DNA from: an uncultured Clostridia bacterium
Lineage (GTDB): Bacteria; Bacillota; Clostridia; Christensenellales; UBA1242
Assembly: GCA_934747775.1 (NCBI GenBank)
Contig: CAKVHA010000002.1
Coordinates: forward strand, 6,361 to 70,360
Length of the DNA stretch: 64,000 bases
Reading direction: 5' to 3'
Every line of letters begins with the position of its first letter. Position 1 is the first letter of the stretch. This document shows positions 6,001-59,585 of this stretch, piece by piece. The notes beneath the pieces were generated by a model. It did not search any database and had not been told where the DNA came from. It saw only the letters and a list, made by a program, of their open reading frames with translations. Both the position numbers and the translations under genes were made by a program.

Positions 6001-9000
6001 ATAATATCCGCTGCTGTGCCAGTCATACTGCTTGCACCAACAACATATTCCACGCCGTCGGCTATGCCAACCTCGGTTATACTGGCTGTTGTATCACGAT
6101 CTAAGTAATACTCTATTGTGGAATACTTTCTTAAATCCATATATACTTTAAAACTGTACCCCTCGGCTAAAGCAAGCATCTCGGCGTTTGTTGCAAAGTC
6201 AAACACACTGCCCATTGCAAGTAGCTTGCTTGCATCTTTGTTTTCAAATGCAGTTTGTCCTAAATACAAAGCCACACAATCATATCCGGCAATTGTGTAA
6301 TCGCGGTTTATGAATGTTGCAAGTTCTTCGTGAGTGCGAAGTGTAAGCGGTGTATCGTAGTCTATTCGTATTTGCTGATCGGCAACATAAAATCTGTTGT
6401 ACGCTCCTGAAAAACGATAATAATATTCTATTGTATAAGTTTCGGCTTCAAAAACTGGTTTTAGCGTAGTGTGTTTTGTCATTTCAATAAATGTTGATGT
6501 TAAATATGCATCATACTCGTTGCCGTCTTCGTCCGCCCATCTTCCTGTAAACACACCCAAGCCACTGTCGCGCTTTACTTGACCACTGGTTAGTTTTGAA
6601 ATGCCTTCAATATCTTTAAAGTAAATTTTTTCGCCTTTTTCCACAATTAGTGGTTGTGGAATAATTCCGCCTGTTATTGTAACACCTGTTAGGTCAAACG
6701 ACAACTGAACCGCATCCCGCCAAATTCCTTCTAGGTTTAGAATGTAGTACTTTTGAGCGTCCACATATCTTTCGTCCACAAAGCCATAAATGTTTACGAT
6801 GTTAAGATTTACATAGCTATTTTCTGTGTACATCGACTGACCGTTGTCGTATGTCCAGCCAACCAACAATTTATCATTTTTTAAAGGTTTTACTTTAAAT
6901 CCGCTCGTATCAATTAGGTAGTAGTATCCCACTTTTACAACTACTCTATATTCTTCAATCTTGCCTGGATTTGTAGAATTTTCACTATAATACTTGTAAA
7001 CAATTTCAAGGTCTGCAGCACGATAGTTTGGTGTAATTTCTAGCGGAGATGATACAATTATGGAATCAATATTTTCCATAGTTTCTACTGTGCCATTTCC
7101 TGAAACACGCCAGTCATAAAAGTTGTAACCCATAAAGGTGTTTAGCCCATAATTTGCATTTATATCGTACACAACATCTGCTAAAGTGTCGCCGTATTTT
7201 ACATCGTAAATTTTAGTAACTTCGTCTAGATATGTTGTAGGGTTTGTTAACACAAACTTAACCGAGAATGTTCTAATTTTTGCTGTAAGTGAAACTACTA
7301 AATTTGATTTAACAGTAAGGTTGCTATTAGGAATATCTAAGTAATAATCTTCCCTAATTGTTCCATCTTGATTACGGTCGCCCCTAACAAGCCAAGCGTT
7401 GTATTCATATCCGTTTTTAAAACCCGGAACAGCAACTGTAGCAAGCAAATCTCTTACACTTTGCCCGTATTTTAGGTCATTAATAGTGGTTGATGTGTGT
7501 TCAACAACGCCTTCTTCATCAAACTTAAATGTTACACTATACTTTAACTCGTTAAATTTAGGATACACATTTGTGTAAAAATCGGAAACATCGCTTGGAT
7601 ATTTTTTAAACAACCCATTAACATCATCTTTAACCGAAATAACATATCCAAGTGCTGATTTTACAAGTTCTTTTTCGCCAGAACCTGCTTTAATTGTCCA
7701 ACCAGCTAGTCCATACCCTGGGGTTAAACTTGTGTTTAACACAATTGTACCAGCGCTGCCATCGGCGTATTCAAATGTTACTATTTCACCAGACAACAAT
7801 ATTTCGTCGGTAATTTTTCTGCCATTTATTTCAAATTTTTCTTTAGAAACAAGCACTGTACCAGCACTATAGTTGGCGGAACTTGTTTGTCTTAATTGGT
7901 TTATGTTGATAGTAAAGATTACTGGACGCCATACAGCATACAATGTTTTGTCGGTTTCAAATACTGGATATCTGCCACCAGCTTCGTAGATTGTATTTTC
8001 TGCCACAAACTGGTGATAGTAACCAGAATATGTTTCGCGATTAACATCGCTCCAACCCACAAATTCATAGAATGGACGTTTTGCTACACTTGCGGGCAAT
8101 TGCGGCATTGTAATATTTATTCCGCTTACACCCAGCATTGTAAGTTCGCTTGCACTATGTCCACCTACCCACTCAACATCGGCAGCACCACCATCAAAAG
8201 TAATGGTTACGTTTTCACGCCATATAGCTTCAAAAACTAGCAATTGTGCTGGCAATTTTAAGTACAAATACGACCTATCATTTTGTTCGTCGTACTGAGT
8301 GCAATATGTTTCGGTGTCAAGTTCTACATTTCCAGCTAAGTACACCCTTGTTGCTACAAGGCGTGCCTTTTCTTTATAACTAACAAGTGAATACACAAAG
8401 TCAGAGCGGTTTGCATTAAATTCTATTTTAATCGAACTTGAACCAGCAATTGTTGTACCGTTTTTGGTTTTCCAGCCCCACATAACGTGGTCTTTGCCGT
8501 TTTCGGTTTTTGTAATATAATATTTTTCGGCTTTTGTGTTCATTGTTATAATTGTGCTGGCGCCCAATGTTTGGTCATACTTATACACAATTGGTTTATC
8601 TTCTGCATCAAACAAACTAGACTTTATTTTACTATTTTCATCAAATGAAGCGTTGGTAACATCGCCCAAGTCATAGGTGTAATAGTTTTCGTTTGCAAGC
8701 CAAACCGTATACAAATTTGCACCCTGTGCGTTTAGAAAAATTCCTTCTTCATCTGCCACATTTCCTATGTTGTATGTGTATTCTGGAATGTACAATTTTG
8801 ATGTGCTTATAAACACCGTGCTAGAATTTGTCCAACCAGCGAATGAGCGATTTAGCGGAAGCGAATATGCACGAGTGATGTTGTTAATTCTAATTTGGTC
8901 GGCAGTAAATAATACCCTGTTTGCATCTCCCACTCCAGCAATCAAGTCATAAAAACTTGGCAGCGTCATAGTATTTTTTTCTATGTTAACCGTAGCCAAC

Positions 9001-10535
9001 AAAACTTGCGTGTTTGTGTCTGGGCGGAAATAATAGTTTAGCCTTCTATAACTTCGCCACTGTGCGTAAAGCGTAATCTCGCCGTTTCTAATTTGGAAAT
9101 TTGATTTATCAAAAAAGTCGTTTTCGTTGTAATTTAGCGTATAGCCTGTGCCGTCGCGGAATGTATTCCACGAAATTAAGGTGTACATTGGAAGCCCTGT
9201 CATATCGGACTCATTATACACAACATCTTTAAAGTAGTTTTGATGATACACTATACCTTTTATATTTTCGTCGCCAAACAACATATCTCCTTGGCTAGCT
9301 TTAGAATATCTAATATTTTCGCCATTATCAGTTTTTAAAATCTCTGGAACATTGTTGTTTAGAATATCCGCCATTCCAAGTGTGTTTACATAGTTTCTGC
9401 CGCTTGGAAGATTTAGGTTGAACTTAACCTTATATTCTATTAGAGTCCACTTAGCAAAAAGTGTTATGTATGAGTTGTTTTCATCGGTTGACGAATAACT
9501 TTGAATTTCTGCTCTCTCCTCATCGGTTAGTTCTATCGACCCTAGATACATAGGGTCGTACAAAATATTCTCGTTTCTATCACGGCTCATTGTGAAAAAG
9601 CCATTTTTTACAAACAACTGACTAGGTTTTAATGGAACTTTAAAGTTTTTATCTAAGTACCAGCCCATAAATTGAAAGTTACGAAATTCATCGGACGGCG
9701 ACGGAATAGTGTAAACACTGCTATTAAACTCTGAAAGCAATGTCATATATGTTTTGTAATTATTGCCGTCGTATGTAAGTCCGCCATTTTCTGTGTTAAT
9801 GCGACCCTTTATTTGCGAAATGCGCGATCCAGTGAAGTCAAGGTTTTGCGACTCGTATCTAAGCTCTACTTGTATTGGTCGCCACACCGAATAAAGCGTA
9901 ATGTTTTGAGCCTTCATTTGATAGTGGTCGGTTGCGGTGGTGGCTGCCGTACTAGACTCGCCCCAACCTTGGAATGTGTAGCCATATTTGTTTTGCAACC
10001 TATAGTCGCTAATTGTAACAATTGTGCCGTCACTAAGCTCCACTTCATCACGCAAGCGTGGCAACTTTATTGTATCTTCAATTGTGTAAGGTGTGGTGTA
10101 ATCTATATTTAGGGTGTTGTTTTTTAAAACCTTTTTGTTTCCATCCAACACAAGTTCCACCGTATACTCCACTAGGTCAAACTTTCCATAAACCTGCATA
10201 TGCGAGTTTAATTGTTCGTTGTAGTCAAATGGCTCGGCGTAATCAATATCTTTATACCAGCCTTTAAAAACATAACCTTCAATATAAGGTGATGGAAGCG
10301 AAGACAGGTTTCTGCCCTTTTTAACATCTATCGTTTCGTACATACTAACATTCTTTATATCGCCAGATTTATAGCGACTAACTGTGGTTAGCACCACTCG
10401 CACGCGCGTATAAAAATTAATATATAGTAAAATTGCGACCAAGCAAAAAACAACCGCTATACTTATTAGCAGTACATTAAGTAGTAGCTTGTTTCGCTTA
10501 CTCATTTTTACATTTTCATTTTTTCCAGATTTCAT
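1..10535 (-). CDS. Giant cell-surface protein with >20 Listeria-Bacteroides (InlB B-repeat / Flg_new-type) modules and an N-terminal membrane anchor; partial, C-terminus lies beyond the window start
   Basis: The minus-strand frame opens at ATG 10535 (GGGTG 6 nt upstream; alternative ATG 10505). Translated by hand it stays open to base 1, so the stop is off-window and the ORF track omits it. The track shows only short plus-strand shadow ORFs across 370-10267. N-terminus is MKSGKNENVKMSKRNK followed by the hydrophobic helix LLLNVLLISIAVVFCLVAILLY. It is followed by repeated ~70-80 aa modules with an aromatic-x-G-W ... LYAxW signature: GYVFKGWYKD, YTFQGWGES..ITLYSVWRP, FQFMGWYLD..ITLFAKWTL, YTFMGWSKT..KLYPVWQA, FILSGWTDV..ISIYAVWVR, ITGWYINN. 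Confidence 0.75.
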   Translation of the reverse strand, partial: MKSGKNENVKMSKRNKLLLNVLLISIAVVFCLVAILLYINFYTRVRVVLTTVSRYKSGDIKNVSMYETIDVKKGRNLSSLPSPYIEGYVFKGWYKDIDYAEPFDYNEQLNSHMQVYGKFDLVEYTVELVLDGNKKVLKNNTLNIDYTTPYTIEDTIKLPRLRDEVELSDGTIVTISDYRLQNKYGYTFQGWGESSTAATTATDHYQMKAQNITLYSVWRPIQVELRYESQNLDFTGSRISQIKGRINTENGGLTYDGNNYKTYMTLLSEFNSSVYTIPSPSDEFRNFQFMGWYLDKNFKVPLKPSQLFVKNGFFTMSRDRNENILYDPMYLGSIELTDEERAEIQSYSSTDENNSYITLFAKWTLIEYKVKFNLNLPSGRNYVNTLGMADILNNNVPEILKTDNGENIRYSKASQGDMLFGDENIKGIVYHQNYFKDVVYNESDMTGLPMYTLISWNTFRDGTGYTLNYNENDFFDKSNFQIRNGEITLYAQWRSYRRLNYYFRPDTNTQVLLATVNIEKNTMTLPSFYDLIAGVGDANRVLFTADQIRINNITRAYSLPLNRSFAGWTNSSTVFISTSKLYIPEYTYNIGNVADEEGIFLNAQGANLYTVWLANENYYTYDLGDVTNASFDENSKIKSSLFDAEDKPIVYKYDQTLGASTIITMNTKAEKYYITKTENGKDHVMWGWKTKNGTTIAGSSSIKIEFNANRSDFVYSLVSYKEKARLVATRVYLAGNVELDTETYCTQYDEQNDRSYLYLKLPAQLLVFEAIWRENVTITFDGGAADVEWVGGHSASELTMLGVSGINITMPQLPASVAKRPFYEFVGWSDVNRETYSGYYHQFVAENTIYEAGGRYPVFETDKTLYAVWRPVIFTININQLRQTSSANYSAGTVLVSKEKFEINGRKITDEILLSGEIVTFEYADGSAGTIVLNTSLTPGYGLAGWTIKAGSGEKELVKSALGYVISVKDDVNGLFKKYPSDVSDFYTNVYPKFNELKYSVTFKFDEEGVVEHTSTTINDLKYGQSVRDLLATVAVPGFKNGYEYNAWLVRGDRNQDGTIREDYYLDIPNSNLTVKSNLVVSLTAKIRTFSVKFVLTNPTTYLDEVTKIYDVKYGDTLADVVYDINANYGLNTFMGYNFYDWRVSGNGTVETMENIDSIIVSSPLEITPNYRAADLEIVYKYYSENSTNPGKIEEYRVVVKVGYYYLIDTSGFKVKPLKNDKLLVGWTYDNGQSMYTENSYVNLNIVNIYGFVDERYVDAQKYYILNLEGIWRDAVQLSFDLTGVTITGGIIPQPLIVEKGEKIYFKDIEGISKLTSGQVKRDSGLGVFTGRWADEDGNEYDAYLTSTFIEMTKHTTLKPVFEAETYTIEYYYRFSGAYNRFYVADQQIRIDYDTPLTLRTHEELATFINRDYTIAGYDCVALYLGQTAFENKDASKLLAMGSVFDFATNAEMLALAEGYSFKVYMDLRKYSTIEYYLDRDTTASITEVGIADGVEYVVGASSMTGTAADIIPTKYGYTFMGWSKTLASANIDFTNGERITYSGQFTKLYPVWQAKPVTIKYFNNDGSVEYRKIDVNFGDVVMLPNDITNEGFILSGWTDVINSDDAKFMAGSNYTASSEEEISIYAVWVRYYTITYFNGLGDSATFGEKIIAGEQYNLKTFIETAMPARKASVFNCWSLNSATVIPVVSFTINSRTGNMVYLDVDTITMDSETDYNIKIYAVWDISYFSAQFTTYDAIGQTSTLYGKIGSPTTFVDTLTQYEYDETDYTFTFPSTASEYLVEGVTYKFTGNWVDENGKSYTNSVVINFTKNHTFTPVYKAVFELKFMCGSQVVFSTDAYLNGSVFSFNNTDLVTAVNTYNSTLSGTKLIGWVADGLYYSNLTSGQNGNNYAAWNSSVLVDKSITFEGVVEKLLTLNIYKNINYNENVFTFDESTKTEISNLIKGDTVDLNGYILGGDYKTKGWVVTSNPSYVYNFNATNLKMQAELNDDLVGEGSAVYAYPVIQVKVSYAVDVVSDIKAEQYISMGDVAPTVGVVLNDDYYLDEWYINGALYNNEPITKPVVLLAKAMPFYAIQLDDSDRRVSGWNQNKLTPKSQITLPDETDVTYNRNNFTITGWYINNYGTSKFVMNGATRKVYSFGDTLTVNDLISIGLDPENKTYGLVPIFKYHTINFVLANVYDAITYTISASDGRTYYTTNSDNNFVFAVLNDAAASSNNTNIIFEAYLLDAKGDVVVENYNAVRSIVTIGRKLTEGYEAYTLNDGWFYYPGLIKVGASFTFKANTVITANTPTANDVNITLGLADENNRIIYNTSRAGFVSGETETFTYSLVSKAGQVVSVKINVKDGYEFTGTLLDENLAVSSFKATITASGNEITVSFRATSNLNLYLVVAPNANVKLKFVLNTSGVSNLDIANIDGTVKVYYNDNYSWRLLQEVSLNSLQSVTALSNTVPNGTRVKIVAELNSVKYFVKSIVVTGSSNNTTSNTYMISDISVGLAPLFTIELANRKVQIGVADSSGTVSIISPAAVIENQISLPYPASTEKENMTFGGYKVGGGFSSDNTNFATFITSAKSVNSDVLILDTTQVESDTYTLVLTPVYYYNSLNITIKAEAGKALVNGETSKVFSVPYNSNVAVSENTITLQSGRITLDENGDIDMSGITEVNVTLTPIGSYVFSGWVSGTTTITSFVVASDTEIAGVVEAGDMCVKATISDFNGKDSKNVEDYKVVEFYINSEPKTTYYYSNLNDILRVTTKTANEITLTYSVFSGFEFVNYIITYNGNVSSNYSTLKEFALANGLNITESTGSIIINNAIFDVDINVVIKKSNYNVSIQLVESSQSSDEQDTLYANLKSSGETFAYYGLSNANNTVPFVAEVVSSGAFRNELVIKILPNSKYFYIDKIYINNSSNMVYPTKTCRFASFDAANNQLVTYIGGDSATDISICIEVKFVEMRVAFHKPSGLEFGTSELSGGTINPSSKFNFGETYSFSASDFVSINNAFSENGRNYRLDGWLYYSGNYETDLASGTVDFSKLKEITSLSYTFNLANGNLHLFGSWSDLYSVKFQPNASGVNNLPSDVNNIVLSDTLNIGSIPTQNGFNFAGYVYVFDGTTYTLNYIGGKFEKLVDESGNEVAVDTNDIVADALKLTQLLTSGQLNSTALNSFEIILQAQWTPKDINITLEYDSSMGSITEQIYNGSSYIDGTINFNYRDTLKHQAILDGETTKYALIVLDYNNNIKGRLIAENNAANNYEFKNWLLNGSVIYLDDLVLITSDGVVKLECWGSYVNHTINLTWDALFKDKVKGSSYGSLGGENKAQVDYSIVVTYNFIDLSSNLSTLEKVAIATINGSLGEINKVSSSKTITLNNNFDITSILVKLRKGYGALIKIDLTNTPYQINDSKIYETTINTLVADEVSLDATIPEKQITVTHSGSVANYGEYEIIYYTPVKTGNHITDYTQNVVKYSAVVAGNNVFKTTADADIVLGYSNNDYVLTSVNVGGKSVAIKNGSATVTTL

Positions 10536-10616
10536 TCATCGCACCCTTTTTATATATATTATTATAATATATATAAACAAAAGCCACAATCAATTTTTAC
10601 CACATAATTAATTTTT

Positions 10617-11909
10617 TTATAGCTTTGCTTCCACTTTCACATTAAGATTAACAACCGAATTTTCAATAAAATTATTTTGCTGTTCTATGGCGCTAACCTT
10701 TTTTAAATACTCTTTATTTTTAAACTTAAAAAGCCTATCGTTTATAGCAAAAAGGTCGCTATTTGTGCTGTATGCTTTTGCCACAATTTTAGCTAAATTT
10801 TCTTGCAATTTGTTGTTTATTGCGGTTTTAATTGTGTCCGAAATATGTGTTTTTGTAGCATCTAAGTCTTTAATACTTTCGCGAGCTGATTGCATTTCTT
10901 GTAGTGATACAAGAAGTTTTAAATTAATATTTAGCACGGCAACATCGCCATCAAATTTATAATTTACATCGATCTTTTTTTGCACAATAGAAACGCCTAA
11001 ATTCCTTTTTAGTTCTCCATTATCTTCCACATTTTCTAGCAACATAAAGCCGTGTTTTGTATAAGGATTTAATATATTAAACACATTAGCTTCATCACCA
11101 CTAAACTCGGCAACTTTTTTGCCTTTATTGTAAAGCGCAAAATCGCCTTTACACTTAATAATTTTTTCAGGTTGGCTATTGCCGCTTTGGGTTCCGCCCG
11201 AACCGCCGCCACCTTCGGAGCCTCCTTGTTCCGAGCCACCGCCCGAGCTTTCTCCACCTTGCGATGAGTTCAAGCTAGAGCCGTTGTCTTGTTCCTCAAC
11301 CTTTACAATAGTAACCCAAGCGACTGGGCTTTTTGTGAAATATCGTGCATAAAATTCTTCTATGTTCATTTCTGATAATGCAAGGTAATCACTGCCAGTG
11401 CTAACAAGTTTTGAAAAAGTTATACCATTTTCATCTTTGTTTTCAGTGTTTGTTTGAAGCAGCTCTTTCGCTTCCCCTGGACAGTAAACAAGGTTTGTGT
11501 TTTTTGCAAGGTTTGTGGAGCGCACAAAATAATCTAGCACTTCAACAAGATTATCGTCGTCTAGCCCCTTACCAATTACAATACTGTCACAGTGCGCAAG
11601 CCCAATTTCTTTACCGAGCGAAACAGAAAGTTTATACACGGCTTCGGAAATATTTTCGCCTTTACCGCTAACAAGTTTAACATTGCTGGATATTTTAGTG
11701 GGCGATTCTTCCACCACCATTAGCGCACAAAACTCATACTTGTCGTCCTTTTTATCTATGCCAATAGACGTCATAATGGCTTGTTTTTCAAACTCGGATT
11801 TTTGATATATTGCAGTAGGAAAAGTTATTGCAAAAAACAAAAAGAAAACAACAAAAGTTTTGTTTTTAATTAATTTTTTAATTAAGTTTTTCATATTGTT
11901 TTCTCCCAC
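10617..11909 (-). CDS. Ger(x)C-family spore germination receptor C subunit (probable start ATG 11894)
   Basis: Third gene of the A-B-C operon; it overlaps the end of the B gene. The block AIMTSIGIDKK matches the conserved GID block near the N-terminus of GerAC-type proteins. The N-terminus is a hydrophobic anchor with no lipobox Cys. A Gly/Ser-rich insert spans residues ~205-248. Confidence 0.7.
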   Translation of the reverse strand: MGENNMKNLIKKLIKNKTFVVFFLFFAITFPTAIYQKSEFEKQAIMTSIGIDKKDDKYEFCALMVVEESPTKISSNVKLVSGKGENISEAVYKLSVSLGKEIGLAHCDSIVIGKGLDDDNLVEVLDYFVRSTNLAKNTNLVYCPGEAKELLQTNTENKDENGITFSKLVSTGSDYLALSEMNIEEFYARYFTKSPVAWVTIVKVEEQDNGSSLNSSQGGESSGGGSEQGGSEGGGGSGGTQSGNSQPEKIIKCKGDFALYNKGKKVAEFSGDEANVFNILNPYTKHGFMLLENVEDNGELKRNLGVSIVQKKIDVNYKFDGDVAVLNINLKLLVSLQEMQSARESIKDLDATKTHISDTIKTAINNKLQENLAKIVAKAYSTNSDLFAINDRLFKFKNKEYLKKVSAIEQQNNFIENSVVNLNVKVEAKL

Positions 11910-46333: not shown

Positions 46334-46362
46334 TTTACAACTTTTAATTATTGCTGTATAAT
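46334..46362 (+). promoter_or_regulatory. Sigma-A-type promoter for the dnaD/dnaB-like and dnaI operon
   Basis: TTTACA (46334-46339), 17 nt spacer, TATAAT (46357-46362). Confidence 0.5.
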
Positions 46363-46386
46363 ATGGTCAAACATAGGAGAAGATTT

Positions 46387-47829
46387 ATGGCATTTTGTAA
46401 TTTTTCGGGCGAATTTATTAAAAACAGCACAATACAAATTGATAGCGACTTTTTTACGCAGTTTTTGCCATATGTTAGCGACACCAGTTTAAAAGTATAT
46501 ATGTTTGGGCTATATTGCTGCAACAATTCGGGGTCTAAGGATAATAGCTTGCAAAAATTTAGCGCTATTTTAAACCTTAGCGAAGAAGACATAATTAGTT
46601 GTTTTTATGAATGGGAAGAACTTGGACTTGTAACCATTGTTTCTAAAAACCCTTTTGAAGTGCGATATTTGCCAATCACAAACGGCTCGGTTAGACTTAA
46701 AAAATATAACACCAAAAAATACACCGCATTTAATACAAAAATGCTAGAGCTTTTAAGCCGCGACATTACACCACTGGAATTTAACGAATATTACACCACC
46801 ATAGAAAGCCTTCACATAGAGCCCGACGCACTTATTATGATAACCAAATATTGTGTTGACCTAAAAGGCAGCGATGTGGGATATCCCTACATACTAAATG
46901 TTGCAAAAAAATGGATTTACGACGGAATTAGAACTTGCGAAGACGTGGAACAAAGACTACTAGAGCAAGAAAAAAACACAAGCGGACTAAACGACGTGTT
47001 AAAGGTTATGGGGATAAAACGCAACCCAAGTGCCGACGAATATCAAAGCTATTTAACTTGGCTAAACAAAATGGACTTATCCAATGAGATAATAATGTAT
47101 GTTGCAAGCAAGGTTGGCAAAAAAGGTGGTTTTGCAAAACTAGACACCACCCTACAAAAATGCTACAACAAAAAACTTTTTAGCGTAAAAGAAATAAACG
47201 ATTATTTTGATATGGAAGCCGAGTACTACGACACCGCAAAAAGTGTATGCAAAAACCTAGGGTTATATTACGCAAATTTAGAGCCTGTTGTGGAAAACTT
47301 TGTATCGCTTTGGATGAGCAAGGGTTTTGATAAGGACACAATTATAAAACTATCCAACTACTGTTTTAAAATGTGCATTAATTCGCTAGACGGAATGAAC
47401 AACAAAATAAATCAACTTGCAGATAAAAATTTACTTAATATTAATGACATTGACAATTCCATTAGCGAACTTATTAAAAAAGATAACGACATTAAAAAAA
47501 TTTTAGTTAGACTTGGCATTGAAAGAAATGTTATTGCTTCCGACCGCCAGTTATTTAAAATTTGGAAAACCGATTGGTTGATGCCAGATGATGTAATAGA
47601 TTACGCCATAAGCTTATCAGCCGACAAATATATGCCAATGCAGTATTTGCACAAAGTGCTAACAAGTTATCACAACAGCGGCATAACCACTGTGGAAGCG
47701 GCAAGCAAAGTAAAAACTTTTGAGCAAAACACAACAAATACAAAACCAAGCAAAAAAGCAGAAGCACGCGACTACTCTCAAAAAGAACTTAACTCGCTAT
47801 TTGACAACATAACGGAGGTGGAACTATAA
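46387..47829 (+). CDS. Replication initiation and membrane attachment protein (DnaB/DnaD-domain family, Firmicute type)
   Basis: The N-terminus FIKNSTIQIDSDFFTQFLPYVSDTSLKVYMFGLY resembles B. subtilis DnaB. Repeated DnaD-like C-terminal modules follow. It lies directly upstream of dnaI. Start at ATG 46387 with an AGGAGA RBS. Confidence 0.65.
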   Translation: MAFCNFSGEFIKNSTIQIDSDFFTQFLPYVSDTSLKVYMFGLYCCNNSGSKDNSLQKFSAILNLSEEDIISCFYEWEELGLVTIVSKNPFEVRYLPITNGSVRLKKYNTKKYTAFNTKMLELLSRDITPLEFNEYYTTIESLHIEPDALIMITKYCVDLKGSDVGYPYILNVAKKWIYDGIRTCEDVEQRLLEQEKNTSGLNDVLKVMGIKRNPSADEYQSYLTWLNKMDLSNEIIMYVASKVGKKGGFAKLDTTLQKCYNKKLFSVKEINDYFDMEAEYYDTAKSVCKNLGLYYANLEPVVENFVSLWMSKGFDKDTIIKLSNYCFKMCINSLDGMNNKINQLADKNLLNINDIDNSISELIKKDNDIKKILVRLGIERNVIASDRQLFKIWKTDWLMPDDVIDYAISLSADKYMPMQYLHKVLTSYHNSGITTVEAASKVKTFEQNTTNTKPSKKAEARDYSQKELNSLFDNITEVEL

Positions 47830-48761
47830 TGAACGCAATTGAAAAAGTACAAAACGATTTTACTCAAAAAAAGATTGATGCTGAATATACTGCAAACATT
47901 AACAAATTTAAAGTTTTAGAAAACCCAGAATACAAAAATTTGTACAACAAATGCAAACTACTTTCACTAGATGTTGCAAAAGCAGAATACAACAATCTTA
48001 ACCCCAAAGCCGCAAGAGAAAGTTTTTTAAAACTAAAAAAAGAACTTTACTCAAAACTAGAAAAAGCAGGAATAGATATTAGTTCGCTTTACCCTAAATA
48101 CGAATGCTCTAAATGTAAAGACACAGGTATTGTAAACGGCGAGTACTGCGACTGCTTTAAAAAGGCATTATCAAAAGAACTTTTAAACGAAAGCGGGCTT
48201 TCTGACAAAAACCTACCAGATTTTGACAATATTAAATACGATATTGTAAAAGACAAAACACAACGCGACAATTATGAAAATGTAGCAAAACTACTTAAGG
48301 AATATATTAATCTTATTCCACACAACTCAAAACACATTATTTCACTTATTGGAAAAGTGGGTGTAGGCAAAACCTATTTATTAAAAGCGTGCGTTAATGA
48401 AGCAATAAAAAAAGATCTTTACTGCTATTACACAACAGCGTTTAATTTAAATAAGGATATGTTAAAATATCACCTTAGCGATTTGGAAGAAAAAGATAGC
48501 ATTATTAGAAAATACTTAGATTGTGACTTACTTTTAATAGACGACCTAGGCACAGAAAACACAATTAAAAACGTTACTGTGGAATACTTATATTTTATTA
48601 TTAACGAAAGATTACAAGCAAACAAAAATATAATAATAACAACCAATCTTACTCCACAACAAATTATGCAAAACTATGACGAGCGCATATTTAGTAGACT
48701 TGCAAACAAAAAAGAGTGTGTGTTACTTAATATGACTGGCGACGATTTAAGATTAAGTTAA
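47829..48761 (+). CDS. dnaI: Primosomal helicase loader DnaI (DnaC/IstB-like AAA+)
   Basis: N-terminal Zn motif CSKCKDTG..GEYCDC, Walker A LIGKVGVGKTYL, Walker B LLLIDDLGTE. The start overlaps the upstream gene's stop. Confidence 0.8.
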   Translation: MNAIEKVQNDFTQKKIDAEYTANINKFKVLENPEYKNLYNKCKLLSLDVAKAEYNNLNPKAARESFLKLKKELYSKLEKAGIDISSLYPKYECSKCKDTGIVNGEYCDCFKKALSKELLNESGLSDKNLPDFDNIKYDIVKDKTQRDNYENVAKLLKEYINLIPHNSKHIISLIGKVGVGKTYLLKACVNEAIKKDLYCYYTTAFNLNKDMLKYHLSDLEEKDSIIRKYLDCDLLLIDDLGTENTIKNVTVEYLYFIINERLQANKNIIITTNLTPQQIMQNYDERIFSRLANKKECVLLNMTGDDLRLS

Positions 48762-52234: not shown

Positions 52235-53035
52235 TTATTCAATTGTGCCGCCGCCCATAAACTTATTTATTATGGCTAGCGACCAACTAGTAGGCAACAC
52301 CTTTACACCAAAATGTAAAAATTTAAACGAACCGCCAACAATCTTAACTGCCGAGCTGTGTTTTTTGTAACTTTGTTTCACAACAACTTTTGCAACCTTT
52401 TCTGGCGGCATACGTTTTCCGGAATCGTGCTTGTCCAAAAACGCAAATGCTCTTTCTACTTGTTTTCCGTAATGCTCGTTGGTTTCTTCTATTCGCACAC
52501 GGTTTTTCATAAATGGTGTTTTTACTTCACCTGGGCAAATTACTGTTACATCTATGCCCGCTTGTTTTAGTTCCATTCGCTGACACAAACCCATCATATA
52601 TACGGCACTTTTTGTAAAACAGTACAAACTTCTAAAAGGCGAAGGCATAAGCCCAGACACGCTAGAAATGTATATGATTTTACAACCTTTTGTCATATAT
52701 TTAAGGGCGTATTTACTCATTAAATAACAACCCACAACATTTACTTCAATTGCCTTTTTCACAACGTCACTTGGCAAAAGTTCCAATGCACCATTTACAC
52801 CCATTCCAGCATTGTTTACTAAAATATCTATGCGTCCTTCCTTTTGACCAATTTCATCTAATACTTCTTTCACTCTTTCTTCGTTAGTTACATCGCAAAC
52901 ATAACTATATTCGGGATATTGTTCGTCTATGGCAATGCTAAGGCAATACACAGTGTCGCCATTTTTTCTAAACATATCCGCTGTGCATTTTCCAATTCCA
53001 CTATTTGCACCTGTTATAACCACAATTTTTTTCAT
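52235..53035 (-). CDS. Short-chain dehydrogenase/reductase (SDR) family oxidoreductase
   Basis: MKKIVVITGANSGIGK (TGxxxGIG), NNAG, and catalytic Y-x-x-x-K (YCFTKSA). Start at ATG 53035 with an AAAGGTGA RBS. Confidence 0.8.
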   Translation of the reverse strand: MKKIVVITGANSGIGKCTADMFRKNGDTVYCLSIAIDEQYPEYSYVCDVTNEERVKEVLDEIGQKEGRIDILVNNAGMGVNGALELLPSDVVKKAIEVNVVGCYLMSKYALKYMTKGCKIIYISSVSGLMPSPFRSLYCFTKSAVYMMGLCQRMELKQAGIDVTVICPGEVKTPFMKNRVRIEETNEHYGKQVERAFAFLDKHDSGKRMPPEKVAKVVVKQSYKKHSSAVKIVGGSFKFLHFGVKVLPTSWSLAIINKFMGGGTIE

Positions 53036-53147
53036 ACTTTCACCTTTAAATAATGATTTAATTCTATTACATATTATATAATATACAATATTAAAACACA
53101 AACAAAATTATCTTAAAAAATAATCACATAAAAAGTTTTATCCACAT

Positions 53148-53424
53148 AATATGAAGTGTATATAGGTTGCATAACATTGCCAACTTATATACCCTCCCCT
53201 TCTTCCAACTTTTTAAGTTGTTTATATAAAAATCCCTTGTTTTGGTGCAAAAACAAGGGATTTTTTGACAAGTGACTAAGTTATCCACAAAGTCACACGC
53301 TAATTTTTATAAATTTTTATGAATAAATATAAATTTTTGAATAAAAACACAGATTTTTGAATTTTTACACACTTTTTCACATAAGTTATCCACTTATCCA
53401 CAGTTAGTCACATAATTATCCACA
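53148..53424 (+). other. DnaA-box cluster (oriC-like element or ectopic DnaA-binding cluster)
   Basis: Perfect TTATCCACA at 53148-53156, 53281-53289, 53394-53402 and 53416-53424. TTATCCACt at 53386-53394. A degenerate TTAgtCACA at 53404-53412. All lie on the plus strand. They flank an AT-rich segment with phased repeats at 53301-53380. Confidence 0.75.
53228..53266. terminator. Strong bidirectional hairpin terminator inside the DnaA-box region
   Basis: AATCCCTTGTTT-tggtgca-AAACAAGGGATT, flanked by an A-run and T6. Confidence 0.7.
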
Positions 53425-53521
53425 AAAAGTTTTCTAAATTTGTTCTAATTTAAGCTAAAATGTGCACAACTGCGAGTAAATTTTGCAAGTTATACACAAT
53501 ACAGCGTGTATTTATGACAGA

Positions 53522-55054
53522 CTATGGGCAAAATGCGGTAGGAATTGCTCCTTGCATATTATCCGCATTTATGCAATTGTTTGCATCTTTAATTATTTCC
53601 ACATCGCTTGGCACTGCTTCTATGCCAGCCGGAGTATCTAGCGCGCCTTCAATAACTATGCCGTTTTGCGGTTTGTAAATTTCGTGCCTAATAAGTTTTT
53701 CGTCCACAAGCTTGCCATCTTTAAAAGTTTGCAAGTAGGCTTTTGCTTCATAACCTTCACGCGGCCAAGTTAGGCGATAGTATTCGCCCTTATATAACAC
53801 CTTATCGGTAAACTCGCCTTTTGCGTCCACTTTAACAACGTCGCCACTATGCGATATAACTTGAGTGGTTACGCTGCGAGTGCCGTAGGTGTAGCCGTCG
53901 TCGTTTGGTTTGCCATACAACTCCACACTAACCGAGTTTTCATCGTAGAAAGTGTGAACAAACATATCCGCATCGGTGTTGTTTGTAAATTTTAAGTCCG
54001 CAATATATTCCGACACCATTGCATCCAATGCAAGCGGAACATATTTTACTGGAAGAGTGTGTTTGTGTACTTCGTTTATGGTTACACCCGCCCTAATAAG
54101 CGCATTATATAGCGTTGTGCTGGCTTGACATATTCCGCCACCAACTCCGTCCACAAATCTGCCGTTTAGTATAATGGTTGCATTTTTATAGCCAGCATCT
54201 AATGTGTGTGGACCCGTAATTTTGTTAAACGACACGGTTTCGCCTTTTCTCAAAACAAAGCCGTCAAATTTGGAAAGTGCCATTTTTACATTGTGTTTTC
54301 TGTTTCCAGTGCTATCTGCTACATTTGTGCTAAAAGTGGCTAGTTTTGTGGTGTTTTTAATATTGTCCACTTTACTAACAGCCGCTTTTTGAACGATTGT
54401 AGGAACTTCAACCACCACTTTAGGCGATGTTAAAAACTGATTGTTAATCATTTCATATAATAGCTCTTTATTTACTTTTAATCCGCTTTTTTCGGTGCTT
54501 ATTTCAAACATTTTGATTTTTTTGGGGTCAAATGTGATTTCACTATCAACCGGGTCGTACTCTATTTGTTTTACAACCGCATCAATTTTTTCGTCCAGTC
54601 CCACAAACATATAGTTAAAGGCAACATTTAAACTTTGACCATCCATTTTTGTAAGATAATCCACTTGCTGGTCATAAGTTCCCACTTGCGACTCGCGGTC
54701 GGTTGCCATATCCAAAATTGTGTGAATGTCGGAGTTAACGGCAAAGTCGGATTTCCCAATATGCCACGATTTTCCATTTGACGTAAGAGTAAGGTCAAAC
54801 TGGTTTGCGTTTTCGTTAAACACCGCCGAAAGATATTCCACCGCCGCGGTTGTTTTCATTCCCGAAAGGTTGTAGCCATTAACTACGGTGCCGTCACTAA
54901 ATGTGCGTTCCGACTTTCCTTCCAACACATAAAACTGCCCCACAACCACCATAACCATTACAAACGCAATAATGGTTAACGCCATAAAAACGCTTGTGGT
55001 GTTGTCTAGCGATTTCTTTTTTGAATATGTATTTTTTAAGTTGTTTTTTGCCAT
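53522..55054 (-). CDS. VanW-family protein with an N-terminal membrane anchor
   Basis: TM helix ALTIIAFVMVMVVVGQF. The VanW core is GGGICQASTTLYNALIRAGVTINEVHKHTLPVKYVPLALDAMVS. Confidence 0.75.
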   Translation of the reverse strand: MAKNNLKNTYSKKKSLDNTTSVFMALTIIAFVMVMVVVGQFYVLEGKSERTFSDGTVVNGYNLSGMKTTAAVEYLSAVFNENANQFDLTLTSNGKSWHIGKSDFAVNSDIHTILDMATDRESQVGTYDQQVDYLTKMDGQSLNVAFNYMFVGLDEKIDAVVKQIEYDPVDSEITFDPKKIKMFEISTEKSGLKVNKELLYEMINNQFLTSPKVVVEVPTIVQKAAVSKVDNIKNTTKLATFSTNVADSTGNRKHNVKMALSKFDGFVLRKGETVSFNKITGPHTLDAGYKNATIILNGRFVDGVGGGICQASTTLYNALIRAGVTINEVHKHTLPVKYVPLALDAMVSEYIADLKFTNNTDADMFVHTFYDENSVSVELYGKPNDDGYTYGTRSVTTQVISHSGDVVKVDAKGEFTDKVLYKGEYYRLTWPREGYEAKAYLQTFKDGKLVDEKLIRHEIYKPQNGIVIEGALDTPAGIEAVPSDVEIIKDANNCINADNMQGAIPTAFCP

Positions 55055-55107: not shown

Positions 55108-56364
55108 TTAATTAGAACTTAGCTTTATACTTTTTAATACCTTAATTAATTCGGCATTTTCATTTTTAACTCTGCCAGTTAGGCACATTTCAAAAAGCAA
55201 TTTTAACACTTGCGATGTGCGGTTTTCGGGAACATACTCTTTAATTTCGTCTGGTGTGATGTCAAGCTTGGTTACACTTAGCGGAATGCCGTTTAGTTTT
55301 AATTGCAACAACATTTGACACACCGGTTTTACATCGCAAAAAACATTTATTACAAGTTGCTCTGATTTTGTTAGGTTGTGATATGACACCGCAATGAACT
55401 CGTTAAGTGGTTTGTATTTTAACTGCTGAAGCACCAAGTAAATGTGTGTAAGATTGCTTACCTGGTCTTTTGACAATTTTAAACTATTAAACATATGCAT
55501 AATGTCGCCATTTACTTGACCTTCTTGCATATATTTAAATGCGTAGCGATTAATAAGCACTAGGGTTAAAAAGCCTAGCAATCTTGCCTCTGTTGGCAAT
55601 TTAAAAAATGCTTCGTACTCTTGCCCTTTTGTAGAGATTTGAAATTTGCCAGATATCATATTAAATAAATACGGATAAATATTTAAATAATTAAACACCT
55701 TAATAAAATCGTTTTTAGTAGCGCCATACTTAAAGTCGGCAGTTACAATTTTTGAAAGTTCTTTTAATTTTCGCTCTGCGGAAATATCGTTTAGCTGAAA
55801 CACCATTTCGCTAGCGGTTTTAAAGGTTTTTACATCTATTTTAAAGTTTAGTTCGCTTGCAAAACGCACAAGCCTTAATATTCTAAGCCCATCAGATGAA
55901 AACACAAAAAGCGGAGTTTCCACGCATTTTATAACGCCATTTACCGTGTCTTTTATTCCGCAATATGGGTCAAAAACTTCGGCAGACGATATATTATAAT
56001 ACACCGCATTACATGTAAAGTCGCGACGTTTTGCATCCAACAAAATATTATCCACAAACTCCACTTTGTCTGGAGCGTGATTTCCGCGCAAATAGTTTTC
56101 CTTTCTAAAAGGCGTGTATTCATAATGCTCACCACTGGGCGAAGTTATTATCATTGTGCCAAGTTTTTCATTTACAACTTTGCATTTGTAGCCAATTTCT
56201 TCACATTTTTTAGCCGCTTTGGCGTCATCAAAAGGCGCGCAAATATCAATATCGTCGCACGGATATTTTAACACTGCGTTTCTAACATATCCGCCAACAA
56301 CATACAACTTGTCTTCAAAAGCGGTTGCTAATTTTTTAAGGTCATCACTAATTTTTATTTCCAT
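55108..56364 (-). CDS. cca: CCA-adding tRNA nucleotidyltransferase (poly(A) polymerase head-domain family)
   Basis: LYVVGGYVRNAVL..CDDIDICAP (GGxVRx...DxD) and RRDFTCNAVYY (the RRD motif). 418 aa. Confidence 0.75.
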   Translation of the reverse strand: MEIKISDDLKKLATAFEDKLYVVGGYVRNAVLKYPCDDIDICAPFDDAKAAKKCEEIGYKCKVVNEKLGTMIITSPSGEHYEYTPFRKENYLRGNHAPDKVEFVDNILLDAKRRDFTCNAVYYNISSAEVFDPYCGIKDTVNGVIKCVETPLFVFSSDGLRILRLVRFASELNFKIDVKTFKTASEMVFQLNDISAERKLKELSKIVTADFKYGATKNDFIKVFNYLNIYPYLFNMISGKFQISTKGQEYEAFFKLPTEARLLGFLTLVLINRYAFKYMQEGQVNGDIMHMFNSLKLSKDQVSNLTHIYLVLQQLKYKPLNEFIAVSYHNLTKSEQLVINVFCDVKPVCQMLLQLKLNGIPLSVTKLDITPDEIKEYVPENRTSQVLKLLFEMCLTGRVKNENAELIKVLKSIKLSSN

Positions 56365-58247: not shown

Positions 58248-59585
58248 TTAAAAAGTAATAAAATTTACGCCATATATTTGCGTTGTGGTTTTATCTACTT
58301 TTACTTTGTCGGAAATTTCAACACCAGCAACAACCAAAATTTCATTTCCCACAGCCAGCACTGGCAACACATCTCTAAAACGAGCAGGAACTTTGCGGTC
58401 TATAAAAAATTCGTTAAGCGATTTTGTTCCGCCGCCATATTTTTCAAACTCGTCACCATTTTGTCTAAAACGCCAAACAGCATTTTTATCCACTTTTTTA
58501 GCATCAAACACATTTTGATATGCACTAAAATCTATGTTGTTGGAAATATAAACTTCCAAAACACCAACACCTGGAATATTAAACTTGCCACGTTTTAATT
58601 TTAGCGGTTTAATGCTTGTCTTTAATTTTTTGTTTGTGAATGTTATAAATCCATATTCTTTAATAACAACTACACCGTTAGGTAAATTAATTTTTGCACC
58701 GTTTTCACCATTAACCGCAAGGTCACAAACAAGTTTTAAGTGTTTTCTTTCTATATCCACACTTGCGCCTATTTGTTTTAACGCTTTAAAAATTAAGCGA
58801 CTTGTAAGCGATAAATTGTTTGTAAAGTAACTAGAATATGCCTTAACTGTGTTTTCACTTTCTTTAACAATTGCATTTTTACTAATAAGCGAATTAATAT
58901 AATCGTTATCTTGCTTACAAAGTTTGCCAAACTCACAAATTGTAGAGTCTGCATTTTGCCAGCGATTTCTAATTAGCGGCATAATCATATTGCGAATATA
59001 ATTTCTGGAATAATCATTTTGCAAATTTGTTTCATCTTCAACATAAGGAATATCATTTGCTTCAACATATGCTTGAATTTCGGTTTTTGCCGTATACAAA
59101 AGTGGACGAATATATTTGCCGTCGCGGTTTAATTCCATTCCACACGCACCAGCAACACCAGCACCTCTAAATATATTTAACAAAATTGTTTCGGCTTGGT
59201 CTTGCATATGATGACCTAAAGCAATTTTATCCACAACTCCATCATCTAATAGCTTATTAAACACAGCATAGCGTCCTTCTCTTGCGCCCTGCTCCAAACC
59301 AAGTTTTTTGTTTGCGCAAAGTTTGTTTATATCCAAAACATAACTATATAGTTTTATGTTGTTTTTTTCACAATAGTTTTTAACAAACATACTATCACTT
59401 GCACTGTTTTTTCTTAAACTATGGTCAACATTAATAGCAACCAGATTAAACTTAAGTTTGTTTTTAAGGTGCATTAAAATATTAAGCAAACACATACTGT
59501 CTTGTCCTCCAGAACAAGCAACAGCAACAGTTTCATTAGCATTTATTAATTTGTTGTTTACAATTAATTGTTCAACTTTGTTCAT
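58248..59585 (-). CDS. tilS: tRNA(Ile)-lysidine synthetase
   Basis: PP-loop VAVACSGGQDSMCL and LGHHMQDQAETILLNIFRG. Start at ATG 59585 (AGAGG RBS). Confidence 0.85.
   Translation of the reverse strand: MNKVEQLIVNNKLINANETVAVACSGGQDSMCLLNILMHLKNKLKFNLVAINVDHSLRKNSASDSMFVKNYCEKNNIKLYSYVLDINKLCANKKLGLEQGAREGRYAVFNKLLDDGVVDKIALGHHMQDQAETILLNIFRGAGVAGACGMELNRDGKYIRPLLYTAKTEIQAYVEANDIPYVEDETNLQNDYSRNYIRNMIMPLIRNRWQNADSTICEFGKLCKQDNDYINSLISKNAIVKESENTVKAYSSYFTNNLSLTSRLIFKALKQIGASVDIERKHLKLVCDLAVNGENGAKINLPNGVVVIKEYGFITFTNKKLKTSIKPLKLKRGKFNIPGVGVLEVYISNNIDFSAYQNVFDAKKVDKNAVWRFRQNGDEFEKYGGGTKSLNEFFIDRKVPARFRDVLPVLAVGNEILVVAGVEISDKVKVDKTTTQIYGVNFITF

Follow-up and report, generated by a model that had tools for sequence, protein, structure and literature searches.

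Why would a bacterial chromosome carry a dense group of perfect DnaA boxes in a place where neither dnaA nor dnaN is found? The question is posed by a noncoding gap of 486 bp (53036-53521) in a 64,000-nucleotide stretch of contig CAKVHA010000002.1, from an uncultured Clostridia bacterium; the whole of this stretch is referred to here as the window. The gap lies between the start of a short-chain dehydrogenase (SDR) gene on one side and the stop codon of vanW on the other. A first-pass annotation had described an origin-like cluster of DnaA boxes at this position and had offered three readings of it: an ectopic DnaA-box cluster (DBC) like those of Bacillus subtilis, DnaA-dependent control of the SDR gene, or a real origin in a genome with a rearranged origin region. 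Comparison with related loci favors the first of these. We propose that the region 53281-53498, referred to as the module, is probably a conserved, non-origin DBC, similar in kind to Escherichia coli datA, that would act as a sink for DnaA or as a regulator of initiation; we put the probability of this reading at roughly 0.62. The module packs three conserved perfect boxes and about eight weaker ones into 220 bp.

DnaA Boxes Are Concentrated Downstream of vanW

The gap contains four perfect TTATCCACA boxes, all on one strand as originally described (the + strand), at 53138-53146, 53281-53289, 53394-53402, and 53416-53424. The first of them had been placed at 53148, a slip of 10 bp, and the four boxes span 287 bp, not 277. 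The window as a whole holds six perfect boxes against 0.73 ± 0.81 expected, a number reached in none of 100 shuffles, so the clustering exceeds chance, as had been claimed; four of the six are confined to the 287 bp. When one mismatch is allowed, the 300-bp windows of highest density all fall at the cluster (five boxes, compared with at most three elsewhere in the 64 kb). The one-mismatch box TTATCCACT at 53386-53394 shares its last base, and only that base, with the box at 53394, and the box at 53404-53412 that had been called degenerate (TTAGTCACA) has two mismatches. Additional one-mismatch boxes, which the first-pass annotation had not listed, lie at 53490 (TTATACACA) and 53559. The AT-rich phased repeat and the strong hairpin reported with the boxes are also present: the repeat has a period of 10 (AATTTTTATA, 3.7 copies) and a second period of about 20, and the hairpin pairs 16 perfectly matched bases of 53228-53243 with 53250-53265.

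Outside the gap, the two other perfect TTATCCACA boxes of the window are found inside cca (56048-56056) and inside tilS (59227-59235), both on the + strand like the cluster. Both are absent from the related loci L003 and L004 and so are probably due to chance or specific to the lineage. Boxes with at most one mismatch show a strand bias over the whole window, with 30 on the + strand and 13 on the - strand.

The Module Is Conserved in Related Gut Clostridia

Fifteen related loci, all from lineages of uncultured gut Clostridia represented by metagenome-assembled genomes (MAGs), were compared with the window. Loci L003-L007 came from a VanW protein search in which one genome per species was taken (VanW 50-74% identical), and L195-L204 came from VanW homologs returned by two protein searches, followed by retrieval of their contigs. 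All 15 were thus gathered through VanW, which biases the set toward vanW linkage. Judged from the source label of one VanW homolog, the clade is probably one of Christensenellales-like gut Clostridia. Perfect DnaA boxes are found downstream of vanW in 15 of 15 lineages, and in almost every locus the module boxes are the only perfect ones within 8-18 kb; an additional perfect box occurs in L195 alone, at a distance of about 7.7 kb.

On the vanW strand, the elements of the module follow one another in the order inverted weak pair, spacer, box A, overlapping boxes B/C, box E, AT-rich spacer, boxes D′/D, and terminator (Table 1). The distance from A to B is 21-22 bp in every locus and that from B to C is 8 bp, and the distance from B to D is 113-115 bp in 14 of the 15 complete loci. 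The exception is L199 (7650-7754), with 104 bp, where an exact 10-bp deletion, equal to one helical turn, removes the weak box E. This is the sole length change inside the module among the 15 lineages, and it would fit selection that acts on the helical phase and not on box E. Pairwise identity averages 0.79 over A to C, 0.67 over the spacer, and 0.78 over D′ to D, compared with 0.38-0.41 in the flanks on either side; on the evidence of these alignments, the module is kept by purifying selection. Family members reach 86-177 bits against a profile built from the core, with one match per locus (53280-53498 in the window), and the other DnaA-box and generic oriC regions compared reach at most 31 bits.

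The box at 53138, which the first-pass annotation had counted within the cluster, does not share this conservation. It lies outside the conserved element and is missing at the aligned position in all 10 of the other loci that share the SDR-side leader. At the opposite end, only about 25-230 bp separate vanW from the module. In L203, a gene for a 235-aa membrane protein with faint matches to DUF202 and DUF3592 (9564-10271) is inserted between the two, and the module is intact at 10495-10714; direct contact with the vanW stop codon is therefore not required.

An unbiased metagenome scan with the pattern TGTGGATAA-N20-22-GTGGATAACTT returned at least 120 loci, and among the matches listed none encoded VanW and none exceeded 31 bits against the family profile. 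Those inspected were ordinary origins, with dnaA-dnaN in L096 and L098 and an actinobacterial parA-rsmG arrangement in L092, and the scan gives no test of the module occurring away from vanW. A mobile-element origin was considered and set aside, as none of the 67 matches to TGTGGATAAGTGGATAA in a scan of viral contigs had the module architecture.

DnaA Occupancy Predicted from Box Affinity and Spacer Phasing

The A-value adds up the affinities of four consecutive boxes and divides the sum by the mean distance between them. It was calibrated on chromatin immunoprecipitation data, and values above 0.3 mark exclusively the eight stable DnaA-binding regions of B. subtilis, with a maximum of 0.94 (PMC2533591). 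We applied this B. subtilis sequence criterion to the uncultured Clostridia sequences. In the window, the sole region above 0.3 is 53281-53498, where the peak of 5.0 compares with the B. subtilis maximum as a prediction of binding made from sequence alone. In 13 of 13 related loci, too, the highest score falls to the module (peaks of 0.56-3.0), and the A-value windows above 0.3 in these loci are located in the module or immediately beside it. Together with the presence of the module in all 15 related lineages, this outcome favors the reading as an ectopic DBC that the first-pass annotation had listed first.

Of 13 sequences, 12 have a spacer of 82-84 bp between boxes C and D′, and L199 has one of 73 bp. 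A 10-bp periodicity of AA/TT is seen in every one of these spacers; it is matched by no more than 3 of 500 shuffles in 12 of them and by 11 of 500 in L199. Conserved, helically phased A/T tracts are a classic signature of intrinsic curvature. From these features we infer DnaA binding, bending of the spacer, formation of an oligomer, and an effect on initiation.

According to the mechanism we propose, DnaA would sit on strong boxes A, B/C, and D, and the spacer, being bent and of fixed length, would place both groups of boxes on the same face of the helix. A closed DnaA oligomer could then form that would also fill the weak sites E, w1-w3, and D′, with the intrinsic bend standing in for IHF, which has this part at datA, DARS2, and oriC of E. 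coli. DnaA would be withheld, or its nucleotide state changed, and initiation at the true oriC would be tuned in this way. In B. subtilis, deletion of all six DBCs leads to early initiation (PMC3245932). Several points weigh against this account. Titration needs neither rigid spacing nor a bend, so the activity of the module may be more specific than that of a sink. Boxes only 8 bp apart may not be occupied simultaneously. Proximity to the origin, which is important for DBC function in B. subtilis, is here no more than hinted at by synteny. Transcription of vanW probably runs through the module, which leaves room for a role linked to transcription.

A more specific activity is the core of another reading, in which the module would be a DnaA-processing site, the Firmicute counterpart of datA or DARS, that changes the nucleotide or oligomeric state of DnaA and in which the bent spacer of fixed length replaces IHF. 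We consider this improbable. A bolder variant of it would make the module a conditional second origin.

Architecture of the Module

The coordinates of the module and its flanks are collected in Table 1.

Table 1. Features of the DnaA-box module and its flanks, listed from vanW toward the SDR gene (window coordinates)
Feature	Position	Strand	Description
vanW	53522..55054	-	VanW-domain protein, 510 aa (PF04294); sole neighbor conserved in all loci
Box -2	53490..53498	+	TTATACACA, 1 mismatch; outermost box, about 24 nt past the vanW stop
Box -1	53461..53469	-	TTGTGCACA, 2 mismatches; inverted relative to box -2; moderately conserved only
Conserved spacer element	53429..53448		TTAGAACAAATTTAGAAAAC on the vanW strand; TTCGAACAATTTTCAAAAAC or TTGAAACAAAAATCGAAAAT in relatives; not a DnaA box
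Box A	53416..53424	+	Perfect TTATCCACA; TGTGGATAA on the vanW strand
Degenerate box	53404..53412	+	TTAGTCACA, 2 mismatches; specific to the window genome
Double box C+B	53386..53402	+	TTATCCAC-TTATCCACA; 8-bp offset, one base in common (period 8, 2.0 copies)
Box E	53373..53381	+	TTTTTCACA, 1 mismatch to TTATNCACA
AT-rich spacer	53298..53372		A/T tracts phased every 10 bp
Three weak boxes in spacer	53318-53326, 53336-53344, 53356-53364	-	TTATnCAnA, opposite orientation
22-mer	53303..53324		ATTCATAAAAATTTATAAAAAT on the vanW strand, nearly invariant
Box D + D′	53281..53297	+	D perfect (53281-53289); D′ (53289-53297) degenerate here (AAAGTCACA)
Terminator-like hairpin	53228..53265		16-bp stem, 6-nt loop; A-run before, T-run after
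First box of the first-pass annotation	53138..53146	+	Perfect TTATCCACA; outside the conserved module
SDR gene (short-chain dehydrogenase)	52235..53035	-	266 aa; downstream of the module in this sub-clade only

The outermost box, box -2, keeps its distance of about 24 nt from the vanW stop codon in most loci, and its aligned position reads TGTGnATAAC on the vanW strand, with T, G, A, A, A, and C invariant in 13 sequences. Box -1 is TTATTCACA, TTATCAACA, or TTATACACA in the relatives. The spacer of about 45 bp between this inverted weak pair and box A holds a conserved TTAGAACA...T(C/A)GAAAA; in the element at 53429-53448, TT..AA.A is invariant in a 10-sequence alignment and most positions are nearly invariant in the 13-sequence alignment. 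We make no claim for a Spo0A box here, a reading of the TTCGAAC/TTAGAAC element that was made by eye, because the match to TGTCGAA is inconsistent across loci.

The first group of co-oriented boxes consists of four: A, the overlapping pair B/C, and E. All nine bases of box A are invariant in the 13 aligned sequences, and the unaligned L203 has TTATTCACA, with one mismatch. The 13 nt between A and B are unconserved in the alignments, and the double box B/C, with the vanW-strand sequence TGTGGATAAGTGGATAAC, hardly varies among 13 sequences. This overlapping pair with its 8-bp offset (TTATCCAC-TTATCCACA) comprises the strongest boxes and is the same in all relatives. Box E is TTATTCACA, TTATTCGCA, or TAATTCACA in relatives and is deleted in L199.

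The 82 bp between box C and box D′ are 87% A+T and contain weak sites about 20 bp apart in which TAT.CA is invariant three times in the alignment. Box D′ has about two mismatches in most relatives, and L005 and L007 have a full double box D′/D. The terminator hairpin forms the end of the module, between the boxes and the SDR leader. The minus-strand 86 nt that include it (53215-53300) fold at -30 kcal/mol (z = -5.95), and the relatives have a hairpin in the same place with entirely different stem sequences. Its sequence suggests that the hairpin could work in both directions.

The Module Lies Away from the Replication Origin

GC skew of the + strand is negative or close to zero in each 2-kb window from 1 to 64000 and is unchanged at 53.3 kb; left of the cluster it is -0.096, and right of it -0.108. 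The skew of minus-strand genes is -0.124 on the left and -0.141 on the right, and that of plus-strand genes is +0.003 and +0.067. On each side of the module, the minus strand carries about 84% of the coding bases, in agreement with the gene bias from which the first-pass annotation had argued against an origin. An identical contig in another assembly extends 9 kb rightward, and this extension keeps the negative skew and the minus-strand genes and adds no perfect box. The sign of the skew is likewise unchanged across the module in all 14 related loci with two flanks, and the module is found in both orientations relative to the leading strand. Neither dnaA nor dnaN was detected by tblastn in the window, from which they had been reported missing, or in the related loci, the only match being a weak one to DnaI; both genes are absent for at least 20 kb to the right of the module and 53 kb to its left. 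Since skew and gene strand are continuous, the replication fork travels leftward through the region, coming from an origin more than 20 kb to the right. The module is located away from the origin proper, and the true oriC is elsewhere, to the right of the window. A search of the 64-kb window for parS sites, as a marker of origin proximity, found none.

In L204, about 6 kb separate the module from jag-yidC-yidD-rnpA-rpmH, an operon that is a classical neighbor of the origin. The genes spoIIE, tilS, and yabP/yabQ, which are origin-proximal in B. subtilis, adjoin the module in most loci. Synteny of both kinds hints that the position of the module is origin-proximal. Upstream of rpmH in L204 (13299-16160) are a box-free gap of 230 bp, a gene encoding 203 aa, and ftsH, with no oriC or dnaA. 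As rpmH lacks dnaA or boxes upstream, the classical origin neighborhood has been rearranged in at least that lineage.

This rearrangement, and a box density above that of B. subtilis oriC on the A-value scale, are what would speak for the module being an active oriC that has become separated from dnaA in this lineage. Against this, the sign of the skew does not differ between the two sides of the module in the window, with the 9-kb extension included, or in the 14 related loci; moreover, spoIIE, tilS, and cca on the right side, together with the L204 rpmH operon, would be head-on with replication, and the module occurs in either orientation relative to the leading strand with dnaA and dnaN absent. 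We rejected the active-oriC reading on the grounds of skew, gene orientation, and the lack of dnaA/dnaN, and regard it as extremely unlikely. An accessory, conditional, or dormant origin-like unit, which would recruit DnaD/DnaB or fire under special circumstances such as spore outgrowth, need leave no mark on the skew, and about 11 strong and weak boxes in 220 bp around an AT-rich stretch would suit it. A dnaB(DnaD-like)-dnaI helicase-loading operon lies 4-6 kb away in most loci, but the linkage is not kept in L196, L198, L201, L203, and L204. The unwinding pattern of origins consists of a box, a spacer of at most 16 nt, and then at least three NAN triplets (PMC8287927); the tandem D/D′, followed by three to five NTN triplets at 7-13 nt from box D, fits it loosely, but runs of at least four occur in 33% of random AT-rich 60-mers from the window, so the triplets do not exceed background and carry little information in DNA as AT-rich as this. 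Nor is the spacer unusually easy to melt, since lower stability is found in a dozen intergenic regions elsewhere in the window. To our knowledge, no natural bacterial chromosome has an established second DnaA-dependent origin, and we consider an accessory origin very unlikely.

Transcription and RNA-Level Explanations

No terminator was found between the vanW stop and box D, so transcription of vanW probably crosses the module, which lies between this stop and the first terminator-like hairpin and is probably cotranscribed with vanW. DnaA bound there might control transcription, as a roadblock to vanW, by regulating a promoter in the spacer that would give an RNA antisense to vanW or a short RNA that stops at the terminator, or through the SDR leader. 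The module stays beside vanW while its other neighbors change, the nearly invariant 22-mer ATTCATAAAAATTTATAAAAAT includes TATAAA, and DnaA regulates sda, ywlC, yydA, and dnaA via box clusters in B. subtilis (PMC2533591). Against this, no sigma-A-type -35/-10 pair is kept in position on either strand of ten sequences, the best promoter candidates scoring 8-9 of 12 and being present in at most 4 of the 10, and the linkage to vanW is explicable by ancestry, given a separation of 25-230 bp. The module is also retained in L203 despite the gene inserted after vanW. In L005, L007, and L204, the downstream gene is not an SDR gene and converges on the module, which is thus placed between convergent 3′ ends, and in L198 and L201 other open reading frames (ORFs) lie between the module and the SDR gene. 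Downstream genes that change or converge argue against control of a particular neighbor, the same argument that Ishikawa et al. applied to the B. subtilis DBC[gcp-ydiF] (PMC2533591). Control of the SDR gene by DnaA, the second of the original readings, fails further because the SDR-side box at 53138 is unique to the window genome and the terminator intervenes between module and gene; with that box unconserved, SDR promoter control was discarded. Control of transcription by DnaA in some form is possible but, on balance, unlikely.

If the module is transcribed with vanW, its repeated GUGGAUAA motifs, which include GGA, could also be bound by an RNA-binding protein as an element of the vanW 3′ untranslated region. 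RNAalifold found no conserved RNA structure in the module (-2.19 kcal/mol, no compensatory pairs), and Rfam gave no match at gathering thresholds in the whole window and only subthreshold noise in a permissive scan of 52950-53600. The repeated 9-mer exactly equals the DnaA-box consensus, and weak copies in both orientations suit a DNA-binding protein, not a single-stranded RNA motif. With no RNA structure, no Rfam match, and weak motif copies in both orientations, the element acts as DNA, and an RNA-level role deserves hardly any weight.

Comparison with Known DnaA-Box Clusters

The non-origin DBC that we favor has its closest parallels in B. subtilis, whose DBCs are likewise intergenic clusters of high-affinity TTATCCACA boxes away from dnaA that pass the same A-value criterion, in Firmicute hosts without IHF, Hda, or SeqA. 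DBC[gcp-ydiF] resembles the module in lying at gene 3′ ends (those of convergent genes in its case), where it is poorly suited to promoter control, and in being conserved, in its case among Bacillus (PMC2533591). The module shares no positional or sequence homology with these DBCs, and its neighbor is vanW. What sets it apart is a fixed two-part geometry with an AT-rich spacer that is phased and conserved in length; a structural feature that separates functional DBCs was not found by Okumura et al. (PMC3245932). Its conservation extends to VanW proteins 50% identical, far deeper than DBC conservation within Bacillus.

Like the module, E. coli datA, known for datA-dependent DnaA-ATP hydrolysis, is a non-origin site with few high-affinity boxes. 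The activity of datA, which lowers initiation potential, needs a sharp DNA bend between boxes that is made by IHF, whereas the module has only intrinsically phased A/T tracts in the equivalent position; IHF is missing from B. subtilis, the model Firmicute. The module and datA share no sequence homology and differ in box number and orientation. DARS1 and DARS2, the DnaA-reactivating sequences of E. coli, are also short, conserved, non-origin sets of boxes in a strict arrangement. The DARS core boxes I and II are oppositely oriented, whereas the strong boxes of the module are all co-oriented and its weak outer pair and spacer sites are inverted; again there is no homology, and the functional outcome could be the opposite. 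The unwinding module of Firmicute oriC (boxes 6/7, DnaA-trios, and an AT-rich DNA unwinding element; PMC8287927) likewise has a tandem pair with the stronger box upstream and, as at D/D′, an AT-rich stretch about 10 nt after the pair. Unlike that oriC, the module has no skew switch, no dnaA/dnaN, and triplets that do not exceed background, and it has co-oriented boxes on both sides of its AT-rich stretch. Full-text searches of the literature yielded no description of a vanW-linked DnaA-box cluster and no Clostridia DBCs beyond the C. difficile oriC. The module is new within the known class of non-origin DnaA-box clusters and is distinguished by its depth of conservation and its rigid, phased architecture.

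No element that interconverts DnaA-ATP and DnaA-ADP is known in B. subtilis, an acknowledged gap (PMC13220808). Gram-positive bacteria lack Hda, SeqA, IHF, datA, and DARS, and how they keep active and inactive DnaA in balance has yet to be explained. No defining architecture emerged from the six DBCs of B. subtilis, and the module offers one: across a deep clade of gut Clostridia, its boxes are the same, its distances agree within 1-2 bp, and its helical phasing is the same. It provides a concrete 220-bp substrate for DnaA biochemistry. Methods of the Ori-Finder type, which use box density, would rank the module above a typical oriC, making misassignment of the origin possible in fragmented MAGs.

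Neighboring Genes and Other Observations

The replication-initiation operon of the window (46351-48761, + strand) is 4.5 kb from the module and converges on aspS-asnS. Its products are a member of the DnaB/DnaD family (PF07261, 492 aa) and DnaI, the helicase loader (PF00308/PF01695, 310 aa). The dnaB-dnaI linkage is kept in L003, L004, L195, L197, L199, and L202.

Between the terminator and the SDR gene lies a second conserved noncoding element (53124-53225, - strand), which is also found in L003, L004, and L195-L202. At its start is a small hairpin with compensatory changes in the stem (CAACTT/AAGTTG, CAGC/GCTG, and CAGCAA/TTGCTG), followed by a GGAGG-rich purine run and a stem, GTATAT...ATATAC, around a variable loop of 20-100 nt; in L198, this stem has the compensatory pair GTATGCAT...ATGCATAC. 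The element closes with a nearly invariant ACACTTCATAnTATG and has no Rfam match. Its place beside the module is retained in L198 and L201, where other ORFs come ahead of the SDR gene. The element is a candidate for a leader or cis-regulatory RNA of an undescribed kind. A mini-ORF of 19 codons after a strong Shine-Dalgarno sequence in the terminator-SDR interval seemed conserved in the window, L003, and L004, but was rejected because L197 has in-frame stops.

The left end of the window (1-10535) is taken up by a single giant minus-strand ORF, which begins at about 10535, exceeds 3,500 codons, and leaves the window. No ORF is listed in the first 10.6 kb because this one runs off the window edge. 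Its product has an N-terminal membrane anchor and repeated F-x-G-W-type motifs and is, given these features, probably a cell-surface repeat protein.

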